Shown: piece by piece, positions 3,178 to 62,897 of the stretch
How positions within the stretch are numbered: the stretch's first letter is position 1
How the letters are laid out: every line of letters starts with the position of its first letter
Source: Clostridia bacterium
GTDB taxonomy: Bacteria; Bacillota; Clostridia; TANB77; CAG-508
Reading direction: 5' to 3'
Length of the DNA: 64,000 bases
NCBI GenBank assembly: GCA_017404545.1
Contig: JAFRCC010000006.1
Span: 8 to 64,007 of the forward strand
Notes under the pieces: generated by a model
Seen by the model: the letters and a program-made list of their open reading frames with translations, nothing else
Told to the model about the DNA's origin: nothing
The model's database searches: none
Position numbers and translations under genes: made by a program

Positions 3178-4290
3178 ATGGATAACGAGCTAGTAAGTGA
3201 AGTGAATATGGTAAAAAATCATTCCGAAGCCACTAAAATTGTTTATGAAAGAGCGGTTAAAAAATATACTGATTTTTGGTCAATGTCTTTGGAAGAACTG
3301 TTAGAAGAGGCGGAAAATGAAGAAGATAAAGGCATAAAATGGAAAAAAAGAAAATTAAAAAGGAGATTGATTCAATATCGACAACATTTACTTGAAAATT
3401 TCTCTTTAAATACAGCGCACATCTATTTCAATCCCATAACAGTTATTTACAGATATTATGAAATAGAAATAATCGATTTACCTAAAATTAACGAAAAAAG
3501 TTTAAAAAAACCAGAACCTATCCAATTCAAAGATTTACCTGATAAAGAAATCATAAGACAAGCTATAAATATTGCAACTCCTACAATGAAAGCAATAATA
3601 TATTTTATGGCGTCTAGCGGTTGTGCTAGAACTGAAACCTTGAATTTAACTATCGGAGATTATATTGGAGCCCTATCAGAATATACAAACAAAACTAACA
3701 TATACGACATAATAAATGAATTAAACGAAAATAATAATATTATTCCAACATTTAGTATTTTAAGACAAAAAACGGGAAAATATTACACTACCTATTGTAG
3801 TCCTGAAGCAGTAAAGGCTATAAATTTATATTTGCTCGATAGAACTGACTATTTAACAGATTATAAACCTTTATTCAGAATAAATTCAATTTATTTTAAT
3901 GCCAAATTTATAGAAATAAATAATAAACTAGGATTAGGAAAAGTAGGCTCTTATAATCGATTTAGAAGCCATATGTTACGTAAGTTTCACGCCTCCGCAC
4001 TATATAACGACGGTATGAGCTTAGATAAAGTCAATGACTTGCAGGGAAAAGCTAAAAACAAAACCGACCAAGCTTATTTTATGACTAATCCCGAAGATTT
4101 AAAACACGAATATATCAAACATCTTCCGGCTGTAACTATAAATCAAGATGTTGAAAAGCTATCTATCAAATCTCCGGAATTTATTCATATGGAAAATGAG
4201 AATAAAGAGTTAAAATCAGATTTAGACGAACTTAAAAGCAAAATTAAAAATATTGAAAATTTCGTTAAAAATTCCGGAGATGTCTTGTAG
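3178..4290 (+). CDS. int: tyrosine recombinase / phage integrase
   Basis: ARTETL region (first Arg). C-terminal HMLRKFHAS...LQGKA...AYF gives the H-x-x-R...H...Y catalytic pattern. Sits at the element boundary. Confidence 0.8.
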   Translation: MDNELVSEVNMVKNHSEATKIVYERAVKKYTDFWSMSLEELLEEAENEEDKGIKWKKRKLKRRLIQYRQHLLENFSLNTAHIYFNPITVIYRYYEIEIIDLPKINEKSLKKPEPIQFKDLPDKEIIRQAINIATPTMKAIIYFMASSGCARTETLNLTIGDYIGALSEYTNKTNIYDIINELNENNNIIPTFSILRQKTGKYYTTYCSPEAVKAINLYLLDRTDYLTDYKPLFRINSIYFNAKFIEINNKLGLGKVGSYNRFRSHMLRKFHASALYNDGMSLDKVNDLQGKAKNKTDQAYFMTNPEDLKHEYIKHLPAVTINQDVEKLSIKSPEFIHMENENKELKSDLDELKSKIKNIENFVKNSGDVL

Positions 4291-4438: not shown

Positions 4439-5728
4439 ATGAGTAATAAGAAATCACTAATGTTAATAATATTATCGATTTTTATGATTAGTGTTGTTAT
4501 AGGAGCGGTTTCTGCAAACTCTTCATTTGAAGAAAATTATTCTATAACTGAAACCGATAATACCGTTGCTCCATTGTCCGATATGAACTATTTGACTGAA
4601 TATAGTTCTTATTCAGACGAATCAGATTATAGTTCCGACAATGTTGAAACTACTGTTGATGATGGTACTTCAGACAGCAGTTCTGATGATGATAATGAGA
4701 ATATTGATGAAGAAACTCCTGAATATGACGGAGAATTCATTGTTGAAAATATAACTCAAAAATATGACGGATGGGGGTCTGACATATCCGTCTGGTTACA
4801 AGACAATGATGAAAATCCGCTTATTTTAGGAGATGGAGTTGTAACTCTTCATTGGAGTGATGGGACAATATCAAAACAATATGATAATGATTGGTATAAT
4901 CTCGAAATAATTGCTGATGAAATAAATTACGGCGTTGTTGATTATTCCGTATATGATTACTGGTTGTATGATGATGACGAATACGAGTGGGAAGGATATT
5001 ATTCAATTTTTAACAAGCCGGTAGGAACTTATACTGTAACGGCTGTTTGCAATGATGATGTTTACAATATTAAACCTGCAACATTTACAGTTAAAATTAA
5101 TAAAGGAACAGTTAAATTAACTCCCAAAGCTTATCATTGTGCTAAAGGAGATTATGCTACTTTAAAATGTAACGTCGTCGATTCTTACGGCCAATTTGTC
5201 GATGAAGGTACAGTAACTTTCAAAATTGATGGAAAAGAATACAAAGTAAAAGTATCCCGTGGAGTTGCTACTAAAAAAATAAAATTGTCAAAAGCTAAGA
5301 CTTATAAATATACAGCTACATTCAACGGAGACAATTATGTTTCAAAATCAGGGTCTAGTAGTATATACGTTTATAAAATCACTAAAAAAGCTAGAACTTT
5401 CAAAATTGGAAAATATAAAGCTGTAGTTCCATTAGCCAAATATAAAAAATTGATTAATGCTAAAAATACTAATAAACGTATTAGTTTTCATAACATCTAT
5501 ACTGGTAAAAAAATCACTCAAAAGGTTAAAGTAAACGGAAAATGGAAAACTATGAGAAACGTAAAAGTTTACTTTAATATTGCTTATGGTGGTAAAACTG
5601 GAGGGCAAGATTGCAATCCTAATAAATATTGCATTTATCTAGGAACTAAATATCAAAATCCCGGTTATGATGATTTTAAACCTTGGGTAGACGGGTATAA
5701 AACTAAAACATTACTTACTGATTTTTAA
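4439..5728 (+). CDS. secreted adhesin-like protein with Ig-like domain and Lys/Tyr-rich C-terminus
   Basis: N-terminal signal/TM helix, acidic D/S-rich region, Big-like segment (TVTAVCNDD...KVKVSRGVATKKIKL). Paralogous to 55374-56384. Confidence 0.6.
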   Translation: MSNKKSLMLIILSIFMISVVIGAVSANSSFEENYSITETDNTVAPLSDMNYLTEYSSYSDESDYSSDNVETTVDDGTSDSSSDDDNENIDEETPEYDGEFIVENITQKYDGWGSDISVWLQDNDENPLILGDGVVTLHWSDGTISKQYDNDWYNLEIIADEINYGVVDYSVYDYWLYDDDEYEWEGYYSIFNKPVGTYTVTAVCNDDVYNIKPATFTVKINKGTVKLTPKAYHCAKGDYATLKCNVVDSYGQFVDEGTVTFKIDGKEYKVKVSRGVATKKIKLSKAKTYKYTATFNGDNYVSKSGSSSIYVYKITKKARTFKIGKYKAVVPLAKYKKLINAKNTNKRISFHNIYTGKKITQKVKVNGKWKTMRNVKVYFNIAYGGKTGGQDCNPNKYCIYLGTKYQNPGYDDFKPWVDGYKTKTLLTDF

Positions 5729-5744
5729 TTATTAAATTAAGTAT

Positions 5745-5788
5745 AATCTGTTGAGATTATATCTTAACAGATTTTTTAATCTTTTTTT
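5745..5788 (+). terminator. hairpin (12-bp stem AATCTGTTGAGA/TCTTAACAGATT, loop TTATA) plus T-tract
   Basis: Starts 17 nt after the 4439-5728 stop and is followed by TTTTTTAATCTTTTTTT. Confidence 0.6.
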
Positions 5789-6657
5789 ATAGAGATTTTT
5801 TGAAGGTCGAAATTTACTACTTCTAAGATTTTCAATTATTATACGTTTCCCTATTTTTTTTCTATTTTTTTGAAAACATACGCCATGTGTTTTTGGACTT
5901 TTTGGTGTTCAAACTAACAAAAATTAATTTTATTATTGAATATTGTTCATTAAATCAAAAAGATAACATTTAAATATTCAAATGACAAATCTATAATTGA
6001 CCTTCACTAAAATACTTGAATTGATTTCAAAACGTTATTTTAGGGAAGGTAAAAAAAGTATCAATAGGAGTTTCAAATAAGTTAGAAATTGTTAAAAATC
6101 AGTAAAATTACAAAAAAAGACTGGATTCATAAATAAGGATTATAAAAGTAAAAAAGATATTTACTTTTTGAACAACGAGCTGATAAATATGTTTTTTATT
6201 TATAATCCTCGTAATGGGGTCAGTTAAGAAAGATAAAAAGAGTTAAACGGAGTCGCAAAACCATGTTTAATGCCTTTACTGTTCAAAACTTAACCCAATA
6301 ACTAGTTTATCTTTATAAATATATAAAGATTTGCACTAATATTAGGTTTTTTGAATAGAAAATAAGGTAAACAAATGTATTCAACTTTTTTTATTTTTCG
6401 TTATTTTTTTGTAGGTACTTGAGTTTAGATCAAGAATTACCTCATTACTTGGTTTTATTATTGATATTTTTGAGAGATATGAGAAGGGCTTTTGTTATTT
6501 AAATAACAATTAGTCCTCAATATCGGTATATTTATATGTATAGCGATATAAATTAAGAATTAGATTAATAATTTTTAGTTAAATATTAATCTGCTAGTGA
6601 ATAACGCTCCAATGAGTTATTCGGAGAATGATGAGGAGTTAAGATGGAGTCGCAACC

Positions 6658-6852
6658 ATGTACGAAATAAGAAAATGGGTAATTAAACCAGTCTTGAATG
6701 AGGTTATATATTCTAACCTCAACTTTCAAGCTCTGGAGGAAATACTCGGAGAACTCTCTGATAATATGAGTGAAAAAGAGTTCTTTGATTTATACGAAAT
6801 TGAAGAGCTAGAAACTGGATTAAAGAACAACGAAGTATTATGTTCAATTTAA
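6658..6852 (+). CDS. hypothetical early protein
   Basis: ORF preceded by the conserved GGAGTCGCAACCATG translation-initiation motif. Confidence 0.5.
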   Translation: MYEIRKWVIKPVLNEVIYSNLNFQALEEILGELSDNMSEKEFFDLYEIEELETGLKNNEVLCSI

Positions 6853-6904
6853 TCCTTTAGTTTGTCGAATTTTAAAACAAAAAATAACATTAGGAGTCGC
6901 AACC

Positions 6905-7015
6905 ATGTTAAAAGAAGAAGTTATTGACGGGAAACCTCACGTTCTTGTACCTAAAGAGGTATGGAATGAGATTTGGTCTATATTTGATAAAATTACTGAA
7001 ATGGGGGAGTAAATA
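6905..7015 (+). CDS. small hypothetical protein (36 aa)
   Basis: Third copy of GGAGTCGCAACCATG initiates this ORF (MLKEEVIDGKPHVLVPKEVWNEIWSIFDKITEMGE). Confidence 0.3.
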
Positions 7016-8456: not shown

Positions 8457-9017
8457 ATGGTTAAAGCTGAATTAATGGAAAACACTCCAGTAACTCATGA
8501 AACTGGATTAGTGAATGTAGATAACGTTCCTGATGTAGATACTGCATTAGAACAATGGAACGCTTATCAAGCACTTTGTAAAGGTCTTTTAAATGAAACC
8601 GATTATCAAGACATCGTAGTTAAAGAAAAAGACGCTGACGGAAATTACGTCAAAGTAACTAGGAAATTCAAAAAGAAATCCGCTTGGCAAAAATTGTCTA
8701 GAGCTTTTAATGTTGATACTCACATCGTAGACCGTGAACTTGAAAGAACCAAAATGGGTAGAGTCAGAGAAGCTTATTATTGTGTTCGCGCAACTCTCCC
8801 CAACGGTAGAAGTGTAGAATCAGACGCTTTATGCTCTAGAAGTGAAAGAGGCAAAGACAAAGTCTCCGACCACACTATTATGAGTACTGCTAAAACCCGT
8901 GCTACTAATCGTGCTATTGCTGAATTAATCGGAGCGGGCGAAGTTTCTGCTGAAGAAATGGGAGCTGAAAAAAGACTCGTTGAAAGTCAATCTAAATTTC
9001 TAAAAGAGGGTGAATAA
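8457..9017 (+). CDS. putative single-strand annealing protein (Erf/Rad52-like)
   Basis: C-terminal STAKTRATNRAIAELIGAG resembles the Rad52/Erf hallmark (A.T.A.KRA...G.G). Lies next to the replication genes. Confidence 0.4.
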   Translation: MVKAELMENTPVTHETGLVNVDNVPDVDTALEQWNAYQALCKGLLNETDYQDIVVKEKDADGNYVKVTRKFKKKSAWQKLSRAFNVDTHIVDRELERTKMGRVREAYYCVRATLPNGRSVESDALCSRSERGKDKVSDHTIMSTAKTRATNRAIAELIGAGEVSAEEMGAEKRLVESQSKFLKEGE

Positions 9018-9056
9018 ATATATATTCCCTTCTAATTTTTTTATGAGCTGATAAAT

Positions 9057-9434
9057 ATGATTGAGGAAATTACCAAAGCTGAAGAAAATACTACACCCAA
9101 AATAACCTATCCAGCGTTATTTTACATGGGTTTGAAAGAATTAATACAGACAAAATCTGTTGCATTATTCGAACTAAGGAAACTTGAAAATGATTTGAAC
9201 GACGCTGAAAGAAAGCTATCTCACAAAGAATCTAAGCTCATCTTAACAACTGATTTCAAAGAACTAGGATTAACCAATGAAAAAATGAGGAAATCCTACA
9301 TCTATGACGAGTTATATGATGATAAATGTGATATTGCTGTTATGAAAGGCGATGTTGAAGAAAAAAGAGACACTATTGAAATAATCAACCACTTAATTAG
9401 ACTAAGTGAAATTAAATTGCAAGGAGCGTTATAA
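9057..9434 (+). CDS. hypothetical protein
   Basis: ATG embedded in GAGCTGATAAATATG. Confidence 0.5.
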   Translation: MIEEITKAEENTTPKITYPALFYMGLKELIQTKSVALFELRKLENDLNDAERKLSHKESKLILTTDFKELGLTNEKMRKSYIYDELYDDKCDIAVMKGDVEEKRDTIEIINHLIRLSEIKLQGAL

Positions 9435-9435
9435 A

Positions 9436-9936
9436 ATGAGTTTTAATGACAAACAAAGTATTTTTACTAGCACTGAATTAGATTATGAAGAAATTGTAGA
9501 CATTCCGGACGGATACGAAAAAGCTGAATTGAAAGATTTTGAAGATGGAACTTTAATCACCGGCAGACCTGAAATGTCCTCTGTAACTTCCTACACCTTC
9601 GATGATGATGGTGAGGAAAAAACTGTTAATAGGTTCAAATTATTCATTTTCAAAGATGCAGAACAATTATACGTCGAAATTAATGTAAATCTTAAAAATG
9701 ATGGTGATATTCACAAGAATATACGTAAAGGAAGTGTTTTATTTGACTTCTTAACTAGTATTCTTGAGTTAGAAAATGCCGGGTCAGTCGGAAGATCAAA
9801 TATCATCAGAAACGCCAACTTAGCTGAATATCGTGAGTTCGTAAACAGATTAAGTGAAATGACTATCGAAGTTAAAGAAAAAACTGGAACTTATGTATTC
9901 TACAGTTTTGTAATTAGAGATGTACAAATTGAATAA
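9436..9936 (+). CDS. hypothetical protein (start at ATG 9436 behind AAGGAG, not 9406)
   Basis: ORF. Confidence 0.45.
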   Translation: MSFNDKQSIFTSTELDYEEIVDIPDGYEKAELKDFEDGTLITGRPEMSSVTSYTFDDDGEEKTVNRFKLFIFKDAEQLYVEINVNLKNDGDIHKNIRKGSVLFDFLTSILELENAGSVGRSNIIRNANLAEYREFVNRLSEMTIEVKEKTGTYVFYSFVIRDVQIE

Positions 9937-9956
9937 ATGAACTATTGGAGTAGAAA

Positions 9957-11936
9957 ATGGCTTATAATCCAAAAGGACTGTTAAAAAAGTTCATCGAAGA
10001 TAATTATTCAGATGAAATTGAAGAATGCAAGTCATTACACCGACAGTCCAAAGTTAGTATTGATTTTGTAAAATTGAATCAATACCTCTTAGATGAAAGC
10101 GGTAAAGATTTTTTTCATTGGCGGATGTATTCATTCATTCCCGCTATTGAAGAATTTTACAATACTAACTTAACTCCAAAAGAACATATCAGTTTTAAAT
10201 TCATTAATGTACCTGAAACAGTTGAATTGCATAACTTAGACGCTACTAACAACAAAGAATGGATTTCTTGTAAAGCGATGGTTAAAAACATCACAGATAT
10301 TCGAGTAGACTTGAAACAAGCCGTTTATGAATGTCAAGAATGTCTTAAATTAACCGTCGTTAATGTGGCTGATAGTAATAATATTTTAATTCCGACTGTT
10401 TGTGAAAAATGTCAAGGAAAAAGGTTGAAACTTCTGAAAGATAGTAGCAATTACAGAGATTATCGACTGGTTAAGCTTGAAGAACCTTTAGAACTGCGAA
10501 AGGGAGGCAGTACAAGAGAATTAAAAGGCTATATGCAGGATTATCTTGCGAGCCCTTATCATAATATCAAAGCGGGAGATGTTGTCGATGTTACTGGAGA
10601 ATTTAGGGTTGAACCTCGTAAAGTACGGGGAAAATCAGACGGCTTTGAATTTCTAATCGATATTCATAATATAACTCCCGTTGATGATGCTTTTGAAGAT
10701 TACCGTTTGACTGAATCTGATAAAGAGATGATAATTGAGTTATCTAAAAGGGACGATATTTATGATTTGTTAGTTAATACTCTTGCTCCTGAAATCTTCG
10801 GTCATAAAACTGTCAAAGAAGGCTTAATTTTGCAGTTATTTGAAGGAAGCAGACCGGTCGATGATGTTTTCAAGAATAATAGTATGGAGAGATGGACTTC
10901 TCATATCCTTTTGATAGGTGACCCGGGAATTGGAAAATCTCAATTGGTAACTGCTGTTAATAAAAGAGCTCCTAAAATCATCAGTATTGCAGGAACTAAT
11001 ACAAGCCAATCCGGACTTACAACAAGCGCCGTAAAAGACGAACTAACGGGGACTTGGACGATGGAAGCCGGCGGTGTAATCCTTGCAGATACTGGTTTAT
11101 TGTGTATTGACGAGTTCGACAAATTAACTCCTTCAGCTCAAAAAAGTCTTAATGAACCGATGGAGCAATTATCAGTATCATCTGCTAAAGCCGGTTTGGT
11201 TCAAACTATGACTGCTAGAACCAGTATATTGGCAGTAGCCAATCCTAAGTATTCTAAATTCATGGATTCAAAACCTATGAAAGAACAATTGGATATTGCC
11301 GATTCTACGCTATCTAGGTTTGATTTAATATTTGTTCTAAGGGACAATGTTAATGAAACTAAGGATAGAAATTTGGCTAAAACTCTATTGACTAAAAATT
11401 CTATTGATAATGATGTAGAAACTCTATCTGACGATTGTTTTAAAAAATATATTACTTATATGAAGGCTAATTGCTTTCCAGTTTTGACTGACGAAGTAAT
11501 TGATATTTTATCGGAGTTCTATGTAGAGGTAAGACAACAAGCTAGCAAAAGTTACGATGGCAAACCGATTACTGCAAGGGACTTGAAATCTTTAGAGCGT
11601 TTAACAATTGCCCGTGCTAAATGCGAGGGCAGAACTACAACGAAAGTTGAAGATGCTAAAGAAGCTATACGGATTTATAGTGAAAGTTTATACAGCTTAG
11701 GTTTGGACTTAACAACAGCGGGCGAGCTTGTAGGTGTTGCCTCTAACAAAGAAATGGATATAATTTTGGAAGTTGATAAAATGGTGAAAGCTAAAGCTGA
11801 ATATGAAGGACTTCCTTTGTCTAGTGAAAGTATACAGAATTTAAAACACGAATGCGGAGTATTATGTCAAGGTACTAATCTGGACTATAATGTCGTTGTG
11901 GAAGATGCAATAACGAAATTCGAAAAAAGACTATAA
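9957..11936 (+). CDS. mcm: MCM-family replicative helicase
   Basis: C4 zinc finger (CQEC...CEKC), Walker A ILLIGDPGIGKSQL, Walker B LLCIDEFDKL, arginine finger SRFDLIFVL. Confidence 0.9.
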   Translation: MAYNPKGLLKKFIEDNYSDEIEECKSLHRQSKVSIDFVKLNQYLLDESGKDFFHWRMYSFIPAIEEFYNTNLTPKEHISFKFINVPETVELHNLDATNNKEWISCKAMVKNITDIRVDLKQAVYECQECLKLTVVNVADSNNILIPTVCEKCQGKRLKLLKDSSNYRDYRLVKLEEPLELRKGGSTRELKGYMQDYLASPYHNIKAGDVVDVTGEFRVEPRKVRGKSDGFEFLIDIHNITPVDDAFEDYRLTESDKEMIIELSKRDDIYDLLVNTLAPEIFGHKTVKEGLILQLFEGSRPVDDVFKNNSMERWTSHILLIGDPGIGKSQLVTAVNKRAPKIISIAGTNTSQSGLTTSAVKDELTGTWTMEAGGVILADTGLLCIDEFDKLTPSAQKSLNEPMEQLSVSSAKAGLVQTMTARTSILAVANPKYSKFMDSKPMKEQLDIADSTLSRFDLIFVLRDNVNETKDRNLAKTLLTKNSIDNDVETLSDDCFKKYITYMKANCFPVLTDEVIDILSEFYVEVRQQASKSYDGKPITARDLKSLERLTIARAKCEGRTTTKVEDAKEAIRIYSESLYSLGLDLTTAGELVGVASNKEMDIILEVDKMVKAKAEYEGLPLSSESIQNLKHECGVLCQGTNLDYNVVVEDAITKFEKRL

Positions 11937-11951
11937 GGAGTACTATAATTA

Positions 11952-11990
11952 TTACACGTGTACACGGGTTACACGGGTACCCGTGTAATA
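11952..11990. promoter_or_regulatory. GC-rich palindromic element: ACACGTGT (11954-11961) plus a 20-bp perfect palindrome TTACACGGGTACCCGTGTAA (11969-11988)
   Basis: Read directly. Lies between the mcm stop and the RHH gene start. GC-rich in an AT-rich genome. Confidence 0.6.
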
Positions 11991-12038
11991 TTTACGGACG
12001 GGTGATGCCCTTTTAGAAAAAAAGTATTATTAATCGAG

Positions 12039-12506
12039 GTGGTAAGTATTACTAAAAAGAATTTTACTATAACTGTCGATGAAGATTTGGTAAAAAAGGC
12101 TAAAAAGCAAATACCTAATATAAGTAAATTTGTTGAAGATTGCTTAAAATGTTTCTTAGGTATGGGAAACAAGCAAGTTTCAACAAGTAGACAATACGAA
12201 CTGATACAAACTATAAGTAAATGTCAATTAGAACTGCATTTAATGAATGAGAAAAGTAACATTGAAAAATCTAGAAAAGAAGCTGAAACTGAAGAAATTA
12301 ATCTTGTTTGGAGGAAATTATACGCCGAGTATAGAGATACAAGAAAAATTGACTCTGCTAAGCTAAAAGAGGCTGAAAAAATATTAGGAGTTTCTAGTGA
12401 GGAGCTAACTGATATTATTGAAGTCTTATTTGTCTATCACAACGAAACTGAAATAGACATTACAGATTGGTTCGAGGTTTACAATGAATACGGGTACGGT
12501 GATTGA
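12039..12506 (+). CDS. ribbon-helix-helix (CopG-like) DNA-binding protein with a C-terminal acidic domain; GTG start
   Basis: N-terminus KKNFTITVDEDLVKKAKK...ISKFVEDCLKCFL fits the RHH beta-alpha-alpha pattern. RBS CGAGGTG. Confidence 0.5.
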   Translation: MVSITKKNFTITVDEDLVKKAKKQIPNISKFVEDCLKCFLGMGNKQVSTSRQYELIQTISKCQLELHLMNEKSNIEKSRKEAETEEINLVWRKLYAEYRDTRKIDSAKLKEAEKILGVSSEELTDIIEVLFVYHNETEIDITDWFEVYNEYGYGD

Positions 12507-12584
12507 TAAAATAAGAAACGTTACAACCTAAATAGTCGAATATTATTCAAATTAATCAAAATATCAAAAAACGAGCTGATAAAT

Positions 12585-13118
12585 ATGATTAGTATATATG
12601 AAGATTTTGTAAAGGATTATAATAATCCTAATATCACTGGAGAAGACATTAGGAGATTGAATCACCTAAACGCTCATCAGTATAGCAAATTAAGAGCTAA
12701 AGCATTAGATAATGGTGATATTTCAACTCCTAGACATATGAACACCACCGGCGCTAAATTCTACACTAAAACTAAACGTGGAGATTTTATTGTAAAGAAA
12801 CAATACGGCAACAAGACTGTTTTAGTCGGCAGATTTCCTGATCAAGCTACAGCAGAGATGATAGTATCTTTGTGTAAAAGAGTAAATTGGGATTTAAAAC
12901 AAATATCTAGCGTCATCGACGAAAATAAAGTCAAACCTAAAAACTACACCTACGTCAATGGATATTATATTGTAGAAAAACGAATAAACGGGAAAAGGAT
13001 TGTTTTCTATCGTGGGAAACACGAGGCTGAAGCAATCCATCTAGTAAATGAGCTAAGAAAAAACGATTGGGACAAATCGAAGGTGAATTTAATACTTGAT
13101 GAAATGAGTTTGAACTAA
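12585..13118 (+). CDS. tandem AP2-like DNA-binding domain protein
   Basis: Two repeats resembling AP2/integrase-type DNA-binding domains (GDFIVKKQYGNKTVLVGRFPDQATAEMIV; NGYYIVEKRINGKRIVFYRGKHEAEAIHLV). Start carries the GAGCTGATAAATATG motif. Confidence 0.4.
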   Translation: MISIYEDFVKDYNNPNITGEDIRRLNHLNAHQYSKLRAKALDNGDISTPRHMNTTGAKFYTKTKRGDFIVKKQYGNKTVLVGRFPDQATAEMIVSLCKRVNWDLKQISSVIDENKVKPKNYTYVNGYYIVEKRINGKRIVFYRGKHEAEAIHLVNELRKNDWDKSKVNLILDEMSLN

Positions 13119-13304
13119 TCTATATATCGTGGTGGAACTTTACTAGGAAAAACCAGTTGAATAAATCTCTCAAAGGTCTGATAAATCTAACAGCAAGAGG
13201 TGTAAGCCTCTGTTGTTAAATTTAATCAATCCTTTGATAATTCAATTTTGAAATTTTTTTGAAAATCTAGACGAAAACAACCAAACCATTAGGAGAATGA
13301 TAAA

Positions 13305-13502
13305 ATGATGGATTTAGAAGCCTACGGAATATTAGGATACATAGTTTTAATAGTTTTTATAATTTTAGTGCGTATTGTTGCAGTTATGATAGTAGCAGGC
13401 GCTATTGCTACTTATATTGGCTTAAACGGTCTTTTATGGTGGTGCAGTGCTATTGTAATATTTCTATTAATAAACGCCGTAATAAGTGGATTGAGCAAAT
13501 GA
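13305..13502 (+). CDS. small two-TM membrane protein
   Basis: ORF with RBS AGGAG; strongly hydrophobic. Confidence 0.45.
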   Translation: MMDLEAYGILGYIVLIVFIILVRIVAVMIVAGAIATYIGLNGLLWWCSAIVIFLLINAVISGLSK

Positions 13503-13638
13503 GGAGGGACGATGTTAAATTATATCTTAATAGGAGTTTTATTTTCCTATTTTTTTATTGTAATCTACGCAGGAATTGAAATATTATTTGAGAACTTAAA
13601 CGAATCTGATGAGTAAATAGTAAAGAAGGTGATTAGCA

Positions 13639-14307
13639 ATGAACGTAACAATCGATACTAGGGAAACAGACAGAATACGTCCGGCAATATTTTTCTTTTC
13701 TATTCGTAATAACGTTTCAGTTGAAGAATTGGAAACTGGGGACTATATATTTGAGGACAAGGGAAAACAAGCCGTTTTTGAATATAAAACCATGTCTGAT
13801 TTTATTAATTCAGTTTCAGAAGGTCGAGTGTTTAATCAAGCGATTGATCAAAGTAATGAGTTTATCAATCATTTCGTCATTATAGAAGGCACCGATGAGG
13901 ACAGAAAAAAGGAGTCAGAACGAAAGTATTGGACTAGTGGTGTAAATTTCACTAAAAAACAATTCTACGGTGCAATTGCTAGATTAAATACGTTTACAAC
14001 TGTTCTACGTGTTCCGGATAGAAAAACCGCTTTTGAGGTGATGGAGCAACAAGCTAAAAAATGTTTTGACGACAAAGTGCTCGCTAAGACATTTCCCAAA
14101 TCCGAAGGCAATTCAGCATTCAGATATTTGAGTTATTGTTGTCGAGGAGTGGGCGCTAAAACTGCTGAAAAAATTGTTCAAGAGTTAAAATTAAACAATC
14201 TAGAGGACATTTTAAATCTTAAAAAAGAGGATTTGATGAGCATTCATCGTATCGGTGCGACTACCGCAGATAATATACTTTCGCAAATACGTACGGACAT
14301 TTCATAA
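13639..14307 (+). CDS. XPF/ERCC4-family nuclease-like protein with C-terminal HhH2 domain
   Basis: GDY...EYKTMSDFINS resembles the ERCC4 GDY...ERK...DL motif, with Tyr replacing Arg. C-terminal GVGAKTAEKIVQEL...IHRIGATTADNIL is a tandem helix-hairpin-helix. Confidence 0.5.
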   Translation: MNVTIDTRETDRIRPAIFFFSIRNNVSVEELETGDYIFEDKGKQAVFEYKTMSDFINSVSEGRVFNQAIDQSNEFINHFVIIEGTDEDRKKESERKYWTSGVNFTKKQFYGAIARLNTFTTVLRVPDRKTAFEVMEQQAKKCFDDKVLAKTFPKSEGNSAFRYLSYCCRGVGAKTAEKIVQELKLNNLEDILNLKKEDLMSIHRIGATTADNILSQIRTDIS

Positions 14308-14341
14308 GATTTCAAGCGCTGAAACGTTTAAAAAAAGCATA

Positions 14342-14377
14342 TACATATATGTAACCCCGCTAAATCTATAATTAACG
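14342..14377 (+). promoter_or_regulatory. promoter-like bipartite element TACATATATGTA-N12-CTATAATTAACG
   Basis: Same architecture and spacing as the elements at 53433-53468 and 54212-54247. ATG of the next gene 20 nt downstream. Confidence 0.5.
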
Positions 14378-14396
14378 ACTTATGGAGATGTAAATT

Positions 14397-14873
14397 ATGA
14401 TTCTAGTAAAAAGCGAAATTGAAAACATGAACGTGACTGTAGAAATCGATGAAAACGGAGACCACCACAAATGGAGCGGTTGTCCTTCTATTAACTGTGA
14501 AGGAAACTCTTATCTTTTTGAGTCCTGTGATGTTTTAGCTGTAGTTAAAGCGGTTAAAACCTCCGAAACTGTTGAAGAATTTATCGAAAAAGTTTCTGGA
14601 GATAAGACTTGGAAAAAAGAAAGACTTGCAGAACCAATTATTAAAGCAATTAACAAAAGAGAAGTTGATAAAGTGAAATCCGAAGTAATTAAAGTGTTAG
14701 ATTACAGCTTTACCGACGACAACAAAGAATTATTCGAGTTCAACTCTGAAGATAACGACTGCTTAGACTGTTGCTTAAAACACTACGCTAACGCTTATGA
14801 TGGTAGATTTGATAAACTTGACGAATGCGAACAAATTAGATACTTAGTGCAATCAGCTTTAGCTGATTGCTAA
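14397..14873 (+). CDS. hypothetical Cys-rich protein
   Basis: ORF with RBS GGAGATG. Confidence 0.45.
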   Translation: MILVKSEIENMNVTVEIDENGDHHKWSGCPSINCEGNSYLFESCDVLAVVKAVKTSETVEEFIEKVSGDKTWKKERLAEPIIKAINKREVDKVKSEVIKVLDYSFTDDNKELFEFNSEDNDCLDCCLKHYANAYDGRFDKLDECEQIRYLVQSALADC

Positions 14874-14895
14874 ATTCTTTTATTATGGTGATATT

Positions 14896-15117
14896 ATGTA
14901 CGTTAAAGATTTAAAACAACTCTTGGCTAAATGTGATGAGAACGACGAAATTACTTTCATCTTTGATGAAAGCGAAAGCGTTTCATGGGATAGAGGCAAC
15001 GGCTTGAAAGAAGCAACTCAAGTTAATGTTACCGGCTACAAAATTAACGGTAAAATTGCATTAACCAATGGATTTAGCGCTAAATTGCTTAAAGGAGATG
15101 AAGCTCCTATATTTTAA
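14896..15117 (+). CDS. hypothetical protein
   Basis: ORF with RBS GGTGAT. Confidence 0.4.
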   Translation: MYVKDLKQLLAKCDENDEITFIFDESESVSWDRGNGLKEATQVNVTGYKINGKIALTNGFSAKLLKGDEAPIF

Positions 15118-15378
15118 ATTTTTTAAAAAAGTGGTGATATTATGTTTATCAGTGAAATAGATGTTGTTAAAGAATTTATAGGTGAATACGGGGTTGATTT
15201 AACTTTAGGTGAATTGTTAGAAACCTTAGAGGAAAATGCTGAAATGAACGGGTGGATTGTATGTTAAATGATTTAGTAGTCTACGATATTGATTTATCTG
15301 AAGAGGAATATGGGCTTTTGTTAGAAGATGAAGAATTATGTGAGGAATTTTACGAGGAATTGTTAGAATTGTATTTAG

Positions 15379-15675
15379 GTGATTAAAATGAGTTATTTAG
15401 ATTGGAATACTGAATGTAATGTAATAGATATGCTTAATCGTGAAGCTTATTATGCTTTCAACAGAACTATCGGTTTTAGAGATTCTGAAGTTGTAGATTA
15501 TGAAAGCGACGAAATAATCGAATGCTTTGAGCTAAATTTCATCAATAAGAGCAAAAACATGGAAATCGTCGAGTATTTGAAAAACAAAATGGGTGAATTT
15601 GGTTTGAGTTTCTACAGATTAGATAAAGGAACTTGGCTAGGTGAAGTGCAATACAAACTATACTTCACTAAATAA
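15379..15675 (+). CDS. hypothetical protein
   Basis: ORF with RBS AGGTGAT. Confidence 0.4.
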   Translation: MIKMSYLDWNTECNVIDMLNREAYYAFNRTIGFRDSEVVDYESDEIIECFELNFINKSKNMEIVEYLKNKMGEFGLSFYRLDKGTWLGEVQYKLYFTK

Positions 15676-15703
15676 ATTTATTTTTACGGATAGGTGATTT
15701 AAA

Positions 15704-15931
15704 ATGGTAAGACGTTATTTGAAAACAATTTTGAAAGAACAGAACATCGACTTTGAAGAGGACGAGAACAGCTTTATTATATATTGCGAAGGAAATGAAG
15801 CCAAATTCATGAAGATGTTTGATATAGTGAGTAAACGCATAGAAAATTGGACTTATTATTTGGAACTTCCTTTAAACATCAAAATCGACACTACAACTGA
15901 AAAGATTGTAATAGAGTATTGGGAGGCTTAA
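15704..15931 (+). CDS. hypothetical protein
   Basis: ORF with RBS AGGTGAT. Confidence 0.4.
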   Translation: MVRRYLKTILKEQNIDFEEDENSFIIYCEGNEAKFMKMFDIVSKRIENWTYYLELPLNIKIDTTTEKIVIEYWEA

Positions 15932-16242
15932 AAATGGTTTGGAGAGGAGATATTGAAAAACACTACGAAAATGTTGATAAAACCTACGCTGTCCTCGACC
16001 TCATAGATAATGATCAGATAACAGCAAAAAATGAGTTACGTGAGGTAATCCGTAGAGAACTACAATTATCATGTGAGTGCATCATCGATTGGCTAGATGA
16101 CTCCAATAATGAAAATTCCCGTAAATCCAAAAGATACCTCGAGAGTCTAGAACTAGGATATGATATTTGCGTAGTCCTCGAGGTTAGAACTTTTATTTAT
16201 CAATTACTCGATAAATCATTCTCTGATTTGATTAATTCCTAA
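15919..16242 (+). CDS. hypothetical protein
   Basis: ORF. Confidence 0.4.
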   Translation: MGGLKMVWRGDIEKHYENVDKTYAVLDLIDNDQITAKNELREVIRRELQLSCECIIDWLDDSNNENSRKSKRYLESLELGYDICVVLEVRTFIYQLLDKSFSDLINS

Positions 16243-16537: not shown

Positions 16538-16945
16538 TTAATATTTGCTATTTATTTTATAAATATCGAATTCTTCAAATATTAATCCAAAAGGCATATT
16601 TAAAAAAATACACCTAGCGCAATTTTCATTAATAAATTCATAAAAGATGGAAGTAATTCTTTTATCTAATCCCCAATCATTTATTCTAGTTGTAAATTTA
16701 TCATCAATTAAATATTTGATAATAAAACTATCTTTTTTAAAATTAATCTGAAATTGAAAGACTTCCCCGTTATATACTAATTCATAATCAATTGTTTTAG
16801 TAACGTAATTATTTTTTAATTCTAATTCAATGAGTTGTTCTAATACTTCATCAAAAGTACAATTTTGCTTTTCTTTGATTTGTTTTAATATATTATAAGT
16901 TTTTATCGGAACTGTAGTGTTGGTTTGATTTATAGGGTTAGGCAT
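16538..16945 (-). CDS. hypothetical protein, downstream partner of a small RHH gene
   Basis: ORF on the minus strand directly abutting a 43-aa RHH-like ORF. Confidence 0.4.
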   Translation of the reverse strand: MPNPINQTNTTVPIKTYNILKQIKEKQNCTFDEVLEQLIELELKNNYVTKTIDYELVYNGEVFQFQINFKKDSFIIKYLIDDKFTTRINDWGLDKRITSIFYEFINENCARCIFLNMPFGLIFEEFDIYKINSKY

Positions 16946-17215: not shown

Positions 17216-18307
17216 TTAATTTTCCATTAAACTTTCTTTTTCGGAGATATAATTTGAATAAATTTGTTTTTGAATATGTTTTTTATATTTAGTTAATTGT
17301 TCTATCTCTAAATTTATCATATATTGTTCCATATACTCATAATCTGGTTCGCCTTTATTGTCAGTAGGAACTAATATTATTTGTTCTCTCATTCTTTTAG
17401 CATTAAATTTATATCCATACATATATTTTACTTTTTGTTTCAGAATTATGGTTTTAAAGAATAATAACACGTGTTTATTGTCAGCATAGTTTTTTAAGTG
17501 AAATCTTTTTACATCATCGCTGAATAAGCAAGTATAAGGATGATAAAAGTTTTCTACTACGCTTCCATTATAATTAACACCTAATACATTTTTATCAATT
17601 GAATTATTGGAATTACTAACGTAATTAGTAATTCCATTGTTTAAATATGTTGCACCAATAAATGGAGTTGAGCCTGGGCTCATATTTGCTTTAGTTAATC
17701 TTTTTCCAGATGAAATTTTAAATAAATCTCGGATATAAAACTGACTCCAATTTTTATTCTCTAATGGTTCTAAGTCCTTATAAGTTAATTTATTTATTTT
17801 TTGATTTAAGTATTCTAAGTATTTATTTAACTTTTCTTGTTCTAAATTTAACATATAATTTCTCATTAAGTCCCAATCAGGATATCCATCGCTTAAAATA
17901 GGTAATTGGATTGTAAGTTCTTCAAATCTAGTTTTTGTTAATCCATACCCGTGGTTGAATATCCCATGATATTTGTTCAGAAGAGATACTATGAAAATCA
18001 TATGGTATTTTGTTAATTCTATAATTGGTCTTAAAACAAAAACGGTACTTTTATTTGCAAAAACTGTGGGCTGATAATAGGATAATCCAGCTCCCCCATC
18101 TCCTTGTTTATTCCAAGTAATAGCATGTTTATCATTAAGTTTTTCAATATTTACAAAAGCATCTACTCCGTTTTTCATCTTTTTTGCAGATATTAGTGGA
18201 TAAGCTCCTTCAGGTAAGTTTTGTGAATCGGAAATATCATTTTCAGTTTCTAATGAAAATATATCAGATACTTTAAAAGTTCCCCAATCTTTATTATAAA
18301 TGTCCAT
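17216..18307 (-). CDS. hsdS: type I restriction-modification specificity subunit (two target-recognition domains)
   Basis: 363 aa with duplicated halves and conserved coiled-coil spacers (LEQEKLNKYLEYLNQKI; LEIEQLTKYKKHIQKQI). Immediately downstream of hsdM. Confidence 0.7.
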   Translation of the reverse strand: MDIYNKDWGTFKVSDIFSLETENDISDSQNLPEGAYPLISAKKMKNGVDAFVNIEKLNDKHAITWNKQGDGGAGLSYYQPTVFANKSTVFVLRPIIELTKYHMIFIVSLLNKYHGIFNHGYGLTKTRFEELTIQLPILSDGYPDWDLMRNYMLNLEQEKLNKYLEYLNQKINKLTYKDLEPLENKNWSQFYIRDLFKISSGKRLTKANMSPGSTPFIGATYLNNGITNYVSNSNNSIDKNVLGVNYNGSVVENFYHPYTCLFSDDVKRFHLKNYADNKHVLLFFKTIILKQKVKYMYGYKFNAKRMREQIILVPTDNKGEPDYEYMEQYMINLEIEQLTKYKKHIQKQIYSNYISEKESLMEN

Positions 18308-20197
18308 TTAATCATCCTCAAAAAGATACTCTTTTCCATGAGATATGAAATCAAATTCAAAGGTTAAATAATCAGCCATTACATTTTCTAATTCATTTTT
18401 ACTAGGAATTTCATCATTAAAATAATAATAAGAGTGTAACCATTCATCATCATCTTTAACTGTTGATTTGACCATAAATTTGCTTTCAGCGTCTTTTTCA
18501 TCTCTCCAACATTGCAATAAATGTTTTCTTCTTTCAGCAACCCTATCGGTTTCGACAATTCCAGTATGCTTTTTCAATCTGTATCCGTCATCTTTAAAAT
18601 TAATAAATTTGCTTCGTTTTTCTGGGGGGTGAGGATTATGAGCTGTGAAAATTGCTATAACTGGATTTACTCCCCGCCTACGAAATACATGTTTTGGATT
18701 GAGAGTAATAACTCCTTCTAAAGTATGCTCTTTCAAAATTTGTTTTTTAATTTCTTTATCATCATCATTTGTCCCGACCATTACTGATTGAGGAACTATA
18801 ACTGCACATTTACCATTATCTCCTAAAGAATCCAGCAATCGTTTGATAAAATTTATTTCAGACGTATCTTGAGAATATGGAGGGTTCATCAAACCAACAG
18901 TATAATTTTCTTTTTTCAAATCATCAACTTCACATCTAAAGAAATCTCTTAATTTAAGATTACTTTTACCATCTCCTCTTAAAATCATATTTGTTGTTGC
19001 TATGGTAAATAAATGAGGTCTTAATTCAATACCGTGTAAATTATTTAATTTTATATTTCTTTTTTCGCCCTCATCTGTTGTCTGAGATATCATTTTATTC
19101 ATTCCAGCAATTAAAAAACTTCCCGTACCACAACAAGGGTCAAATATTTTGTCTGTTGGTTTAATTTCTAATAATTCACAAAATAATTCAGTAATATGTT
19201 TGGGAGTCAATACAATTCCTAATGAACTACCGTCAACTCCACTATATTTAATAAATTCGGTGTAAAAATATCCTAAAATATCGACATTAACGGTAGTTAT
19301 CGATGGGAAAATTTTATTTCTTATAAATTCTGCGAAATATTTGAGGGGTGTTTTTTTTAAGGTTGGGTCTATTGTATTTAATGTTTCATCATCTTTTATT
19401 AATGTAAATTGGTTTAATATGATTTCTTCTTTATCTCCAACTTCACTACTTTGAAGGTTGTCTTTCATTGCTTCGTAGATTTTTTTTCCATCAGTTCCAC
19501 CTTTACGTTTTCCTTTTAAATCATCTAAATTTAAACCTTCATTTAGTGCTAATAATATTGCAGAAACTACTAATGGTTTTTGAGTATCACCTAATTGACC
19601 ATAGTTTCTTAAATGTTTGTTTAATTCTTTTGATTTTTTTATAACTAGTTCTAATTCCAATTCTTTTTGAGAAGGCTCCCCTAATACTTCTTCTTTATAA
19701 TAATCGTTAATATTATCCTCATTAAAATTTTCAAAATCATCTACTTCTTCCAATAATTTATAAGAATTTTCATCAACAAAGATGGGTCTTATAGTAAAAT
19801 TTTCAGTTCCACTACAACCAAAAGCAAAAGCTTTTTTATAAGAGGATTTTTTAAGAATATGGTTTGCGTAGTGCAAAGCTCCATTTTCTGCATAATTTTT
19901 AATAGCATTTTCACTAGATAAATCTAAATTCTTCTGATTATCGTCGAGGTAAAGGGCTTGTTTTGAGGATTCTCTTTTATCTTCGATGACTATTACAAAT
20001 TCTCCAACTAATCCTATAAATTCAGGAAACCCTTTGTTTTCTCCGGGATTACTTTCGATATTTTTTGTCGCTCCGTTTAATGCTTCATCAATTTCAGGAT
20101 TGCTACTTATTTGTTCATCATATTCTATATCAGCGTCCTTTAATAATCCTCGCACTATATCATCAGTCTTTCTCTCACTAACCATTTTCCCACTCAA
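18308..20197 (-). CDS. hsdM: type I N6-adenine DNA methyltransferase subunit, N-terminally extended
   Basis: Motif I DPCCGTGSFL and motif IV LMNPPYS. 629 aa. Confidence 0.8.
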   Translation of the reverse strand: MSGKMVSERKTDDIVRGLLKDADIEYDEQISSNPEIDEALNGATKNIESNPGENKGFPEFIGLVGEFVIVIEDKRESSKQALYLDDNQKNLDLSSENAIKNYAENGALHYANHILKKSSYKKAFAFGCSGTENFTIRPIFVDENSYKLLEEVDDFENFNEDNINDYYKEEVLGEPSQKELELELVIKKSKELNKHLRNYGQLGDTQKPLVVSAILLALNEGLNLDDLKGKRKGGTDGKKIYEAMKDNLQSSEVGDKEEIILNQFTLIKDDETLNTIDPTLKKTPLKYFAEFIRNKIFPSITTVNVDILGYFYTEFIKYSGVDGSSLGIVLTPKHITELFCELLEIKPTDKIFDPCCGTGSFLIAGMNKMISQTTDEGEKRNIKLNNLHGIELRPHLFTIATTNMILRGDGKSNLKLRDFFRCEVDDLKKENYTVGLMNPPYSQDTSEINFIKRLLDSLGDNGKCAVIVPQSVMVGTNDDDKEIKKQILKEHTLEGVITLNPKHVFRRRGVNPVIAIFTAHNPHPPEKRSKFINFKDDGYRLKKHTGIVETDRVAERRKHLLQCWRDEKDAESKFMVKSTVKDDDEWLHSYYYFNDEIPSKNELENVMADYLTFEFDFISHGKEYLFEDD

Positions 20198-58102: not shown

Positions 58103-59113
58103 TTAATATCTTACTTTACCAATGTGTCTTGTTGCACCAGGATCTTCACCATTGAAGTGAGCCAAGTAATATACAAACCATTCAAGTGGAATTACAAAGA
58201 TGAATGGAGACAATAACTTATCAACATCAGCATAATCCTTTAAGTCATAGATTATTGATTTGGCTTCAAGGTTTTTACAGAAATCAATAGCTTTTTGTGT
58301 GATTTCATCAGATTTTAAATCAGATGTTAAAAAGATTACCGGAACATCCTTTTCTGCCCTTTCAATCAGACCATGTCTGAATTCTGCTGAATATTCAGGA
58401 CAAGCATGTTTGATTGCTCCTTCCATAAGCATGGTCATGGCCAATTTGTATGAAAGACCAAAGTTAGGTCCACTTCCCAAACAGTAGAAAATGTCTTCAT
58501 CTTTAAACTCTTCGGCCAACACTTTATTTTCATCTTCAGTTGCAACCAAAAGTTTTTCAAGCATTTTAGGCATTTCAGCTAATTGTGCCAGCAGCTCTGA
58601 TTTTTCCTCATAATCTGATGCCTTAAATAAGATTTGATATAAACAGGCAAGCTGGGTAATGTATGTTTTAGTACCTAAAATTGCAGTTTCTCTTTCACAT
58701 CTTGTAACAATTGGAGTTTTTGCTTCTTTAATCATGGAACTGTCAGGCTCGTTTGAAATGGATACTGTGTGTATTCCAAATTCATTGCATCTTCTTAAAG
58801 ATGCAAGAGTATCAGCAGTTTCACCTGACTGAGAAGTAAAAATAGCTATGGAGTTTTCATCATTTACCAATTTCTTGTTGTAGTAAAATTCATAACCAGT
58901 ATAGACTTCTATGTTCATGTTAGTACTGGACATCCTAATTGCATCCCTAACACTGTAACAAGTTGAAATAGAACTACCGCAACCAATTAAATAGATTTTA
59001 TCCACTTGTGAAATTAAATCAGACACGTCATCCATCTTTGGCATTTCACTTTCAAATGTTTTTTTAAGTGAATCAGGTTGTTCCATCATTTCGTCATACA
59101 TTTTATATTTCAT
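58103..59113 (-). CDS. SIS-domain sugar-phosphate isomerase/aminotransferase-like protein (two SIS domains)
   Basis: [10 protein letters not shown]...[11 protein letters not shown] and [19 protein letters not shown] are SIS-fold phosphosugar-binding motifs. Confidence 0.6.
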
Positions 59114-59204
59114 AGCTAAAACTCCTTTAAATTTAATAAATAATATTAATATATTGTTAATAGATATATAAAAATGTTTTTTAGAAAATAATTAAAATGA
59201 TATT

Positions 59205-62769: not shown

Positions 62770-62897
62770 AATATTTGCTCCAATTAGTTAATATTATAGA
62801 TATATGTTTTGGTGATATTTAATGGTATTGAAAATATGAAATTTGCTAAAAAAAGAAATCTATAAAAATAAAAAAAAGTTAGACTCAAATATTGAGC

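Follow-up and report, generated by a model that had tools for sequence, protein, structure and literature searches.

A four-box array as the probable operator of a ribbon-helix-helix protein in a Methanobrevibacter provirus

The box array behind mcm

Most of the 64-kb stretch of DNA analysed here (the window) is taken up by a tailed provirus, about 53 kb long and integrated in a Methanobrevibacter chromosome, and our subject is the spacer between two of the viral genes: mcm, coding for an MCM helicase in which Pfam recognises OB, P-loop and lid domains, and a gene called from a GTG codon at 12039 for a protein with a ribbon-helix-helix (RHH) N-terminus. The spacer holds an array of 37 nt, TTA-CACGTG-TA-CACGGG-TTA-CACGGG-TA-CCCGTG-TAA, which begins 16 nt past the mcm stop codon (11934–11936) and ends 51 nt ahead of the GTG. 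It is built from one pseudo-palindromic hexamer, CACGKG, present four times with the last copy inverted; the box starts lie 8, 9 and 8 bp apart, and the outer flanks are symmetric (AATTA/TAATT). The features of the locus are collected in Table 1.

Table 1. Coordinates in the window of the array, the other spacer elements and the genes discussed in the text.
Feature	Position	Strand	Remarks
Four-box array with symmetric flanks, putative RHH operator	11952–11988	.	TTA-box1-TA-box2-TTA-box3-TA-box4-TAA
Box 1	11955–11960	.	CACGTG, perfect 6-bp palindrome
Box 2	11963–11968	+	CACGGG
Box 3	11972–11977	+	CACGGG
Box 4	11980–11985	-	CCCGTG (inverted CACGGG); makes the 20-bp palindrome with box 3
Conserved motif GGACGGGTGATGC	11996–12008	+	8 nt past the array flank; unique in the window
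AAGTATTAY motif, copy 1	12022–12030	+	reads AAAGTATTACTAAA in relatives, about 22 nt ahead of the start codon
Shine-Dalgarno-like GAGGTGG	12036–12042	+	contains the called GTG start (12039)
AAGTATTAC motif, copy 2	12044–12052	+	overlaps the gene start
RHH protein gene	12039–12506	+	155 aa if GTG is the start; Pfam CcdA N-terminal match, AlphaFold2 model, 130 homologues
Recognition strand, residues 7–14 (KNFTITVD)	12057–12080	+	N8, T10 and T12 are the putative base-contacting face
Virus-encoded MCM helicase gene	9957–11936	+	659 aa; Pfam MCM_OB, MCM, MCM_lid, E=7e-71
Integrase gene	3178–4290		provirus

A sequence-only reading of the same DNA had described a GC-rich nested palindrome between mcm and an RHH gene, and had proposed it as an operator for RHH autoregulation and possibly as a replication origin recognised together with the MCM. 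Its account of the letters was accurate: ACACGTGT at 11954–11961 is the box 1 element, TACACGGGT stands in direct copies at 11961–11969 and 11970–11978 with an inverted copy at 11979–11987, and a perfect 20-bp palindrome, TTACACGGGTACCCGTGTAA, occupies 11969–11988. The placing of these elements between the mcm stop and a GTG-initiated 155-aa reading frame was likewise right, and Pfam bears out both the MCM upstream and the RHH N-terminus downstream (CcdA, E=8e-5). The palindrome as the functional unit is another matter. It is formed by boxes 3 and 4 in opposite orientation and is incidental; in its place we find a four-box array, in which box orientations vary between relatives and no hairpin topology is favoured.

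The array has no counterpart elsewhere in the window. The palindrome TTACACGGGTACCCGTGTAA is single-copy even when three mismatches are allowed (none expected from shuffles), and when the window was searched de novo for hexamers recurring, in whichever orientation, at offsets 8, 17 and 25, only the array and one low-complexity match came up, against 0–1 hits in 20 shuffles of the window. No second array was found above chance in the window, every fetched locus also has a single array, and the exact pattern TACACGGGTACCCGTGTA gave no hit in the viral contig collection. The sequence-only reading had named as its own refutation that the palindrome might be a widespread host terminator; it proved unique in the window, which includes about 6 kb of host DNA, and had no exact match in the viral collection. 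With 51% G+C against 31% for the window, the array is matched by only 1.2% of 37-nt windows.

We fetched 45 loci, of which 31 are non-identical, by looking up exact proteins and by scanning genome, metagenome and viral collections with alignments; single-protein searches of viral contigs with the RHH protein or with MCM returned nothing, and in these contigs it was the alignment-based search that yielded loci. The RHH protein has 130 full-length homologues, almost all from rumen or gut metagenomes and 48–64% identical among the 120 matches listed. In every locus that reaches far enough upstream, mcm is followed by a spacer of about 100 nt and then by the RHH gene. Anchored on the conserved downstream motif, the spacers of the 31 non-identical loci align without gaps and place four boxes in the same columns, with the TA/TWA/TA inter-box spacers and the distance to the downstream motif fixed and the hexamer variable. 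At least 11 box classes occur (CTCGAG, CAATTG/CCATTG, CCAATG, TGGTCA/TGGGCA, TATGTA, TACGGR, TACGTA, TGTGTA, TATGCA, TATGTG, CAAGGG and CACGKG across the loci), set against some 18–20 combinations of DNA-facing residues among the 120 homologues. Disregarding orientation, boxes differ at 0.59 of 6 positions within an array and at 3.38 of 6 between arrays. The island of high G+C described earlier thus exists in this virus and is accidental to it, since the hexamer varies and some relatives have A+T-rich boxes (TATGTA).

Three JGI metagenomes (Ga0326511, Ga0326512 and Ga0326513; loci L009–L025) each hold three box/strand classes together; those of Ga0326511 are CCATTG, TATGTA and TACGGA. A distant relative, L031, whose RHH protein is 29% identical, has a gap of 13 nt between mcm and the RHH gene (4984–4998) and no box array there. 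A small palindromic cluster (ATCCAA / TTGGAT twice) lies at 2419–2450 of that locus, upstream of the string ORF162-mcm-RHH, and might be the corresponding operator or might be there by chance.

The conserved feature could in principle be a hairpin or cruciform: an RNA stem-loop that ends or stabilises the mcm transcript, or an extruded DNA structure. All 31 arrays do fold as RNA around the middle spacer, with a minimum free energy of −9 to −22 kcal/mol per 42 nt; the layout (8, 9, 8, with AATTA/TAATT outside) is symmetric; and within box self-complementarity G.T oppositions outnumber A.C (13% versus 3%), as would suit a plus-strand RNA. Yet Watson-Crick complementarity hardly depends on the pairing scheme (73% for 1-4/2-3, 73% for 1-2/3-4, 69% for 1-3/2-4 and 62% when a box is paired with itself), and since every scheme scores alike, the folding potential is best taken as a by-product of four pseudo-palindromic boxes. 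A two-fold symmetric RHH dimer would require just such a box, and the self-complementarity of 62%, where 25% is expected, fits a two-fold symmetric reader. In a hairpin, boxes that share an arm have no need to resemble one another, but here they do (0.59 of 6); the related arrays are arranged as >>>>, <>>>, >><> or >>><, and the fully symmetric >><< is absent among them. Nor does a hairpin predict the covariation with RHH residues 8, 10 and 12 described below. No T-tract follows the array in the window (TAATATTTAC), and termination in archaea depends on oligo-T tracts rather than on hairpins. A terminator scan made no call at the site, and over the window the scan for sigma-70 promoters and intrinsic terminators did not rise above shuffled controls; its model is bacterial, and because the host is an archaeon, bacterial promoter and terminator logic is not applicable here. 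Neither Rfam, at gathering scores, nor a tRNA scan found a match anywhere in the window, the array included. We consider a nucleic-acid fold a very improbable explanation for the conservation.

Covariation of the boxes with the RHH strand

The RHH domain spans residues 6–42 or so, by Pfam and by the structural model. The Pfam CcdA match of the window protein (23.3 bits against a gathering score of 22.4) covers positions 1–32 of the 71 in the profile, and the RHH part of CcdA matches in all 29 of 29 homologues, with a best E of 5e-8. In the strand KNFTITVD, polar residues at 8, 10 and 12 alternate with hydrophobic residues at 9, 11 and 13. The single-chain AlphaFold2 model (mean predicted local distance difference test score, pLDDT, 85.5) has residues 1–14 extended, followed by helices at 15–24 and 28–40, a 53-residue helix (49–101) and a helical bundle (106–151); mean pLDDT per decade is about 83–93 over residues 51–150, as for folded helices. 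PDB sequence searches with full-length and N-terminal profiles, and Foldseek against PDB and BFVD, gave no significant match, the C-terminal part included, and PHROGs holds no family for this protein or for most of its neighbours. Homeodomain-like three-helix matches to the C-terminal part were disregarded (E>1). Because the PDB searches by sequence and by fold gave nothing significant, the assignment rests on the Pfam match and the residue pattern, which together place the N-terminal domain in the ribbon-helix-helix (MetJ/Arc) type and make the outward residues 8, 10 and 12 of the strand the putative readers of bases.

NCBI names the identical protein 'type II toxin-antitoxin system CcdA family antitoxin', and on that reading the array would be a toxin-antitoxin operator. 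The Pfam match does exceed the gathering score, but it is limited to the RHH part of the profile, and a protein of 155 aa whose C-terminal region is confidently folded in the model differs from an antitoxin with a disordered toxin-binding tail. The downstream open reading frame (ORF; 12585–13118, 177 aa) has no Pfam or PHROG match, to CcdB or any other toxin included, and the gene 3′ of the RHH gene changes from relative to relative (174, 54, 57, 226 and 246 aa; the ORF of 246 aa codes for an HNH protein). A CcdA-type antitoxin is thus the least probable of the alternatives we weighed, and extremely so; both parts of the public label 'CcdA family antitoxin [Clostridia bacterium]' are wrong. 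The 177-aa ORF adjoins the RHH gene in L031 too (5488–6033), where the RHH protein is 29% identical; by eye it seems to contain two AP2-like beta-sheet/helix repeats, so a second DNA-binding protein is possible.

Among the homologues the RHH protein is conserved apart from the N-terminal strand, and it is with this strand that the boxes vary. Over 29 loci, box distance correlated with strand distance (Mantel r=0.57), and the correlation was unchanged when the rest of the protein was controlled for (partial Mantel 0.57, permutation p=1e-4, a value that is optimistic because the loci are not phylogenetically independent). For the same loci box distance showed no comparable relation to the rest of the RHH protein (r=0.08) or to the non-box flanking spacer (r=-0.07). 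Over 30 loci, the face residues 8, 10 and 12 gave r=0.69 as against 0.18 for the core residues 9, 11 and 13, and residues 41 to the end gave 0.06. A two-residue periodicity of this kind would be expected of a beta-strand that presents one face to the major groove. By nearest neighbour, the strand assigned the correct box class in 81% of loci and the C-terminal part in 22%. For the 18 loci with a complete MCM, we compared 10-residue sliding windows along both proteins: the best RHH window (columns 6–15) reached r=0.56, while the best of 132 MCM windows reached 0.15 and the last 60 MCM columns 0.01.

The relationship also allowed boxes to be predicted from the strand sequence alone before the loci were fetched. 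Four of five predictions were exact: KKNFTITL gave CACGGG four times, in a clade whose C-terminal part is 52% identical, KKTVGVTI gave CTCGAG, KEAIKLSI gave TGGTCA four times and KKVIKLSI gave TGGGCA. The fifth was one base off, the strand KKDVTLTI being found with three CACGGG boxes and one CAAGGG where CAAGGG was predicted. A sixth test, of the strand KERTNISI, was partial, since the contig is cut and shows a single box, TGTGTA; this is also the box of L032, which has the same strand in an RHH protein only 29% identical.

Two loci, L005 and L014, are nearly isogenic. Identity is about 99% over the last 200 nt of mcm, over a spacer of 55 nt and, in the RHH gene, from roughly codon 32 onwards, and their differences fall into two separate patches, the boxes (CCATTG versus TATGTA) and some 30 N-terminal codons of the RHH gene. 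The conserved spacer that separates the patches carries a lineage-specific variant common to loci of three box classes, and the constant matching of the two patches is not explained by simple linkage. Box sequence and DNA-facing residues have been swapped together many times among related viruses. Because the boxes covary with the face of the strand, the predictions held and the two patches match, we take the boxes to be read by the RHH domain, and binding of RHH dimers to the array is very probable.

Operator, replication origin or partition site

If the RHH protein reads the boxes, one dimer would be expected on each 6-bp box, with its two-stranded beta-ribbon in the major groove and N8, T10 and T12 reading bases. 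Given box starts 8, 9 and 8 bp apart, four dimers side by side would coat about 34 bp. With the array placed after the mcm stop and ahead of the RHH start, the most likely effect of occupancy would be to repress transcription that enters or starts in the spacer, either by blocking assembly of the pre-initiation complex or as a roadblock, so that the RHH gene and those following it (12585–16242) would be under negative feedback. Expression of MCM would not be throttled from the array, because the array lies after mcm. A single array per genome fits a dedicated local control site. The best explanation of the locus as a whole, and a probable one, is in our view that the four boxes form an operator for the RHH protein, whose gene lies 51 nt downstream; repression and autoregulation, which we deduce from position and from the usual behaviour of RHH proteins, have odds only modestly in their favour. 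Of the autoregulatory operator proposed by the sequence-only reading, the operator is therefore what the covariation and the predictions uphold, and autoregulation is argued from position only.

Several points weigh against this explanation. The promoter was not located; conserved A+T-rich, TATA-like sequence flanks the array to the left and to the right, and a search of the literature gave no usable promoter consensus for Methanobrevibacter. A promoter near AAAGTATTAC would put the boxes 35–70 nt upstream, where activation or spreading repression could be the result. The strand DVTLTI occurs with both CAAGGG and CACGGG boxes, and for that reason the rule from strand to box is inexact at single-base resolution; to this may be added the optimistic permutation p-value mentioned above. 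More fundamentally, covariation names the reader of the boxes and not what binding achieves, and a single site with diversifying specificity fits an origin/initiator pair equally well.

That alternative casts the array as the iterons of the viral replication origin and the RHH protein as an origin-binding initiator: the variable N-terminal domain would read the boxes, and the conserved C-terminal domain would recruit or position the viral MCM, any autoregulation being a side effect. The mcm-RHH pair is kept in every relative, including L031 and L032, where the RHH protein is 29% identical; there is one array per genome; the many mutually exclusive specificities recall replicon-specific pairs of initiator and iteron; and none of the neighbouring genes was recognised as coding for Orc1/Cdc6, a primase or another initiator. 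Beside the boxes lies the conserved motif GGACGGGTGATGC, whose core GGACGGGTGA, extended as GGACGGGTGA(TGG), occurs in the same register with at most one base change in 29 of the 31 non-identical loci. It is replaced by ACCCCTGACAC, in the form G(T/A)ACCCCTGACAC, in L026, L038 and L042, and two of these, L026 and L038, are the loci with the most divergent MCM, chiefly in its last 90 or so residues. Finally, the C-terminal bundle of the RHH protein tracks MCM phylogeny (r=0.58–0.79).

The boxes themselves, however, do not covary with MCM, for which the best window gave the r of 0.15 reported above. An unrelated ORF upstream of mcm equals the correlation of the bundle with MCM (r=0.86–0.88 over 8 loci, a weak control, since it could be applied to only 8 of the 18), and because that ORF correlates likewise, the correlation is more simply read as backbone phylogeny than as a specific partnership. 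The link between motif variant and MCM is based on only two lineages, L031 keeps the gene pair without an array in its 13-nt gap, and the spacer has no distinctive unwinding element beyond a general 70% A+T. An A+T-rich non-coding stretch at 5729–6657 is an alternative candidate for an origin. GC skew has no turning point near 12 kb; it tracks gene orientation and so is uninformative for a unidirectionally coded provirus. RHH proteins are not known to act as helicase-loading initiators. The origin recognised with MCM in the sequence-only reading has thus gained no specific support, and we think it unlikely that the array serves as one. By the same token it is a doubtful proposal that RHH protein and boxes form a replicon-identity module of Methanobrevibacter viruses, one that loads MCM without Orc1/Cdc6 and possibly together with GGACGGGTGA.

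A partition module of the ParG/omega/ParR type, with the array as centromere for an episomal stage of the virus, is a further alternative. Short boxes at an 8-bp period, in mixed orientation and with a dimer on each, are how the ParG operator and centromere are built (PMC3130281), the array is present once per genome, and its diverse specificities resemble incompatibility determinants. Neither the window nor the related loci, however, showed a recognisable ParA/Walker-type or actin-like ATPase gene beside the RHH gene; the virus integrates and encodes an integrase for the purpose, and four boxes are short for a centromere. A role in partition is accordingly one to which we give very little credence.

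The four-box operator has precedents among RHH proteins. MetJ and the omega protein of pSM19035 bind two to five contiguous repeats with a 7- or 8-bp period, one dimer on each, its beta-ribbon set in the major groove, and neighbours touching, and the omega repeats work in direct or inverted orientation. Arrays of this kind, shared by ParG, omega and MetJ (at least three contiguous boxes, a period of 7–8 bp, either orientation), were found in 31 of 31 loci, although the arrays described here have one extra base at the centre. MetJ further requires S-adenosylmethionine and has the fixed box AGACGTCT, in contrast to the many natural specificity variants of the viral family; omega controls copy number, partition and toxin genes at several promoters, where here there is a single site. 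Arc and Mnt, from the immunity region of phage P22, read their operators with alternate residues of the beta-strand, and Mnt carries an oligomerisation helix at its C-terminus. Lambdoid phages that are otherwise alike exchange a DNA-binding module along with its sites, and the O protein of lambda combines a variable N-terminal domain, matched to four iterons, with a conserved C-terminal domain, recruiting the helicase through P. The proteins and hosts of the P22 and lambdoid systems differ from those here, and so do the folds of CI and O. CopG of pMV158 and ORF56 of pRN1 are copy-number repressors, small RHH proteins from the replication modules of mobile elements that bind a pseudo-symmetric site at their own promoter and limit the replication protein; their genes precede the replicase gene and are co-transcribed with it, whereas the viral RHH gene follows the helicase gene.

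In architecture ParG is a close parallel: one RHH dimer occupies each short box, and binding survives in direct or inverted orientation, with an 8-bp period and A+T-rich spacers (PMC3130281), and on the OF operator and parH centromere of plasmid TP228, as here, the operator lies 5′ of the protein's own gene, coating by ParG being cooperative (PMC3130281). The ParG boxes are of 4 bp (ACTC) and number 8–20 per site, as against four 6-bp boxes at 8-9-8; ParG works with the ATPase ParF, a partner for which there is no equivalent here; and it is a small protein with a flexible N-terminal tail, unlike the 110-aa helical C-terminal extension of the protein from the archaeal host. No sequence relationship between the two was detected. 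Among archaeal viruses, F55 of SSV1 and SvtR of SIRV1 are RHH proteins that bind their own promoters (PMC5569661). F55 binds tandem repeats over the start site and the B recognition element (BRE) and maintains lysogeny, and RHH dimers oligomerise along the DNA (PMC5569661). Both proteins are crenarchaeal, have 55–66 aa and act on several promoters per genome, unlike the protein described here; linkage to a helicase gene or exchange of specificity across a family has not been described for them.

The gene start, the provirus and the meaning of the pair

Between the array and the RHH gene the spacer has other conserved elements. The motif GGACGGGTGATGC is a candidate for the site of a second protein or for a core promoter element; no second copy of the GGACGGGTGATG motif occurs above chance in the window. 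A mini-ORF or hairpin in GGACGGGTGATGG was considered and rejected, as reading frames and stems were inconsistent between relatives. The first copy of AAGTATTAY is among the best-conserved stretches of the spacer, kept even in L032 with its 29% identical RHH protein, and AAAGTATTAC, about 22 nt 5′ of the start codon, is the best-conserved A+T-rich element. The two copies of AAGTATTAC stand about 22 nt apart, and promoter-like reuse of this motif elsewhere in the window was not above chance.

The second copy bears on the start of the gene. In most relatives it reads AAAGTATGAC and provides the ATG, preceded by 7–8 nt by GGTGA, GGAGA or GGAGG, in the position at which the window has its Shine-Dalgarno-like GAGGTGG. 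In the clade of the window (the window, L001, L020, L022 and L027) the second copy is AGTATTAC or ATTATTAC, with ATT replacing ATG, and the ATT at 12048–12050 falls at the ATG start position of most relatives. Translation in this clade may therefore begin at a non-canonical ATT or at a weak GTG.

Besides the genes in Table 1, the provirus encodes a terminase, a portal, a tape-measure protein, a non-contractile tail sheath protein and adhesin-like proteins with Ig domains. Cellular genes begin at about 58 kb (58103–63986), and their products match Methanobrevibacter proteins (M. gottschalkii and Methanobrevibacter sp.) exactly or almost exactly. The NCBI label of the identical contig, a metagenome-assembled genome (MAG) of a 'Clostridia bacterium', must by this comparison of proteins be an error of binning or labelling; related viral contigs are also filed under 'Bacillales' and 'Bacteroidales' MAGs (L007 and L008). 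BLASTN of 9000–15000 against GenBank phages found no match.

Several further features of the provirus were recorded. The replication module includes, at 13639–14307, an XPF/ERCC4 nuclease of archaeal/eukaryotic type with a helix-hairpin-helix tail, and that of the relative L004 has a PCNA homologue and an STIV B116-like protein (5981–6712 of that locus). The stretch at 5729–6657, 0.9 kb at 22–26% G+C with scattered weak direct and inverted repeats and no ORF of 35 aa or more, lies at the boundary between the integrase-side genes and the early gene string and is a candidate for a lysis/lysogeny control region or an origin. A perfect 16-nt direct repeat, GGAGTCGCAACCATGT, occurs twice, at 6646–6661 and 6893–6908, each copy forming the ribosome-binding region and ATG of a small ORF (6658–6852 and 6905–7012). 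On the minus strand at 17216–20197, opposing the viral genes that flank them inside the provirus, are the specificity (S) and methylase (M) genes of a type I restriction-modification system, possibly a protective methylase carried by the virus; the ORFs scanned, which did not include a 135-aa minus-strand ORF beside these genes (16538–16945), showed no recognisable restriction subunit. The non-contractile tail sheath gene (48127–50799; Pfam NCTSP TIM barrel, E=6e-70) carries 21-nt and 63-nt tandem repeats in the region coding for its coiled-coil C-terminus (50283–50436). Short tandem repeats of TAATCA(T/C)CAACC stand at 672–696, 1864–1893 and 1966–2013, around a Fic/DOC-winged-helix gene (844–1863) and just beyond the integrase end of the provirus; they could be remnants of the attachment site or regulatory repeats.

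In conclusion, the locus is of a known kind, an RHH protein with an operator of tandem boxes, found in a new protein family and in a virus of a methanogen, and the joint change of operator and reader is recorded there with unusual clarity. The specificity classes are exchanged as matched pairs of operator and DNA-binding domain, and several of them occur side by side in single rumen metagenomes; matched exchange of so many classes suggests selection against cross-talk between related viruses, of an immunity-like or incompatibility-like kind. If the array were an origin, the exchanged specificities would be incompatibility or immunity types, and if the RHH protein does act with MCM, the pair would be relevant to the loading of virus-encoded MCM helicases in archaea. 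Regulation in the viruses of rumen and gut methanogens is almost unknown, and this locus offers a concrete protein-DNA pair. Its natural series of specificities, set on a constant scaffold and a constant operator geometry, is a data set on how the RHH strand reads DNA.

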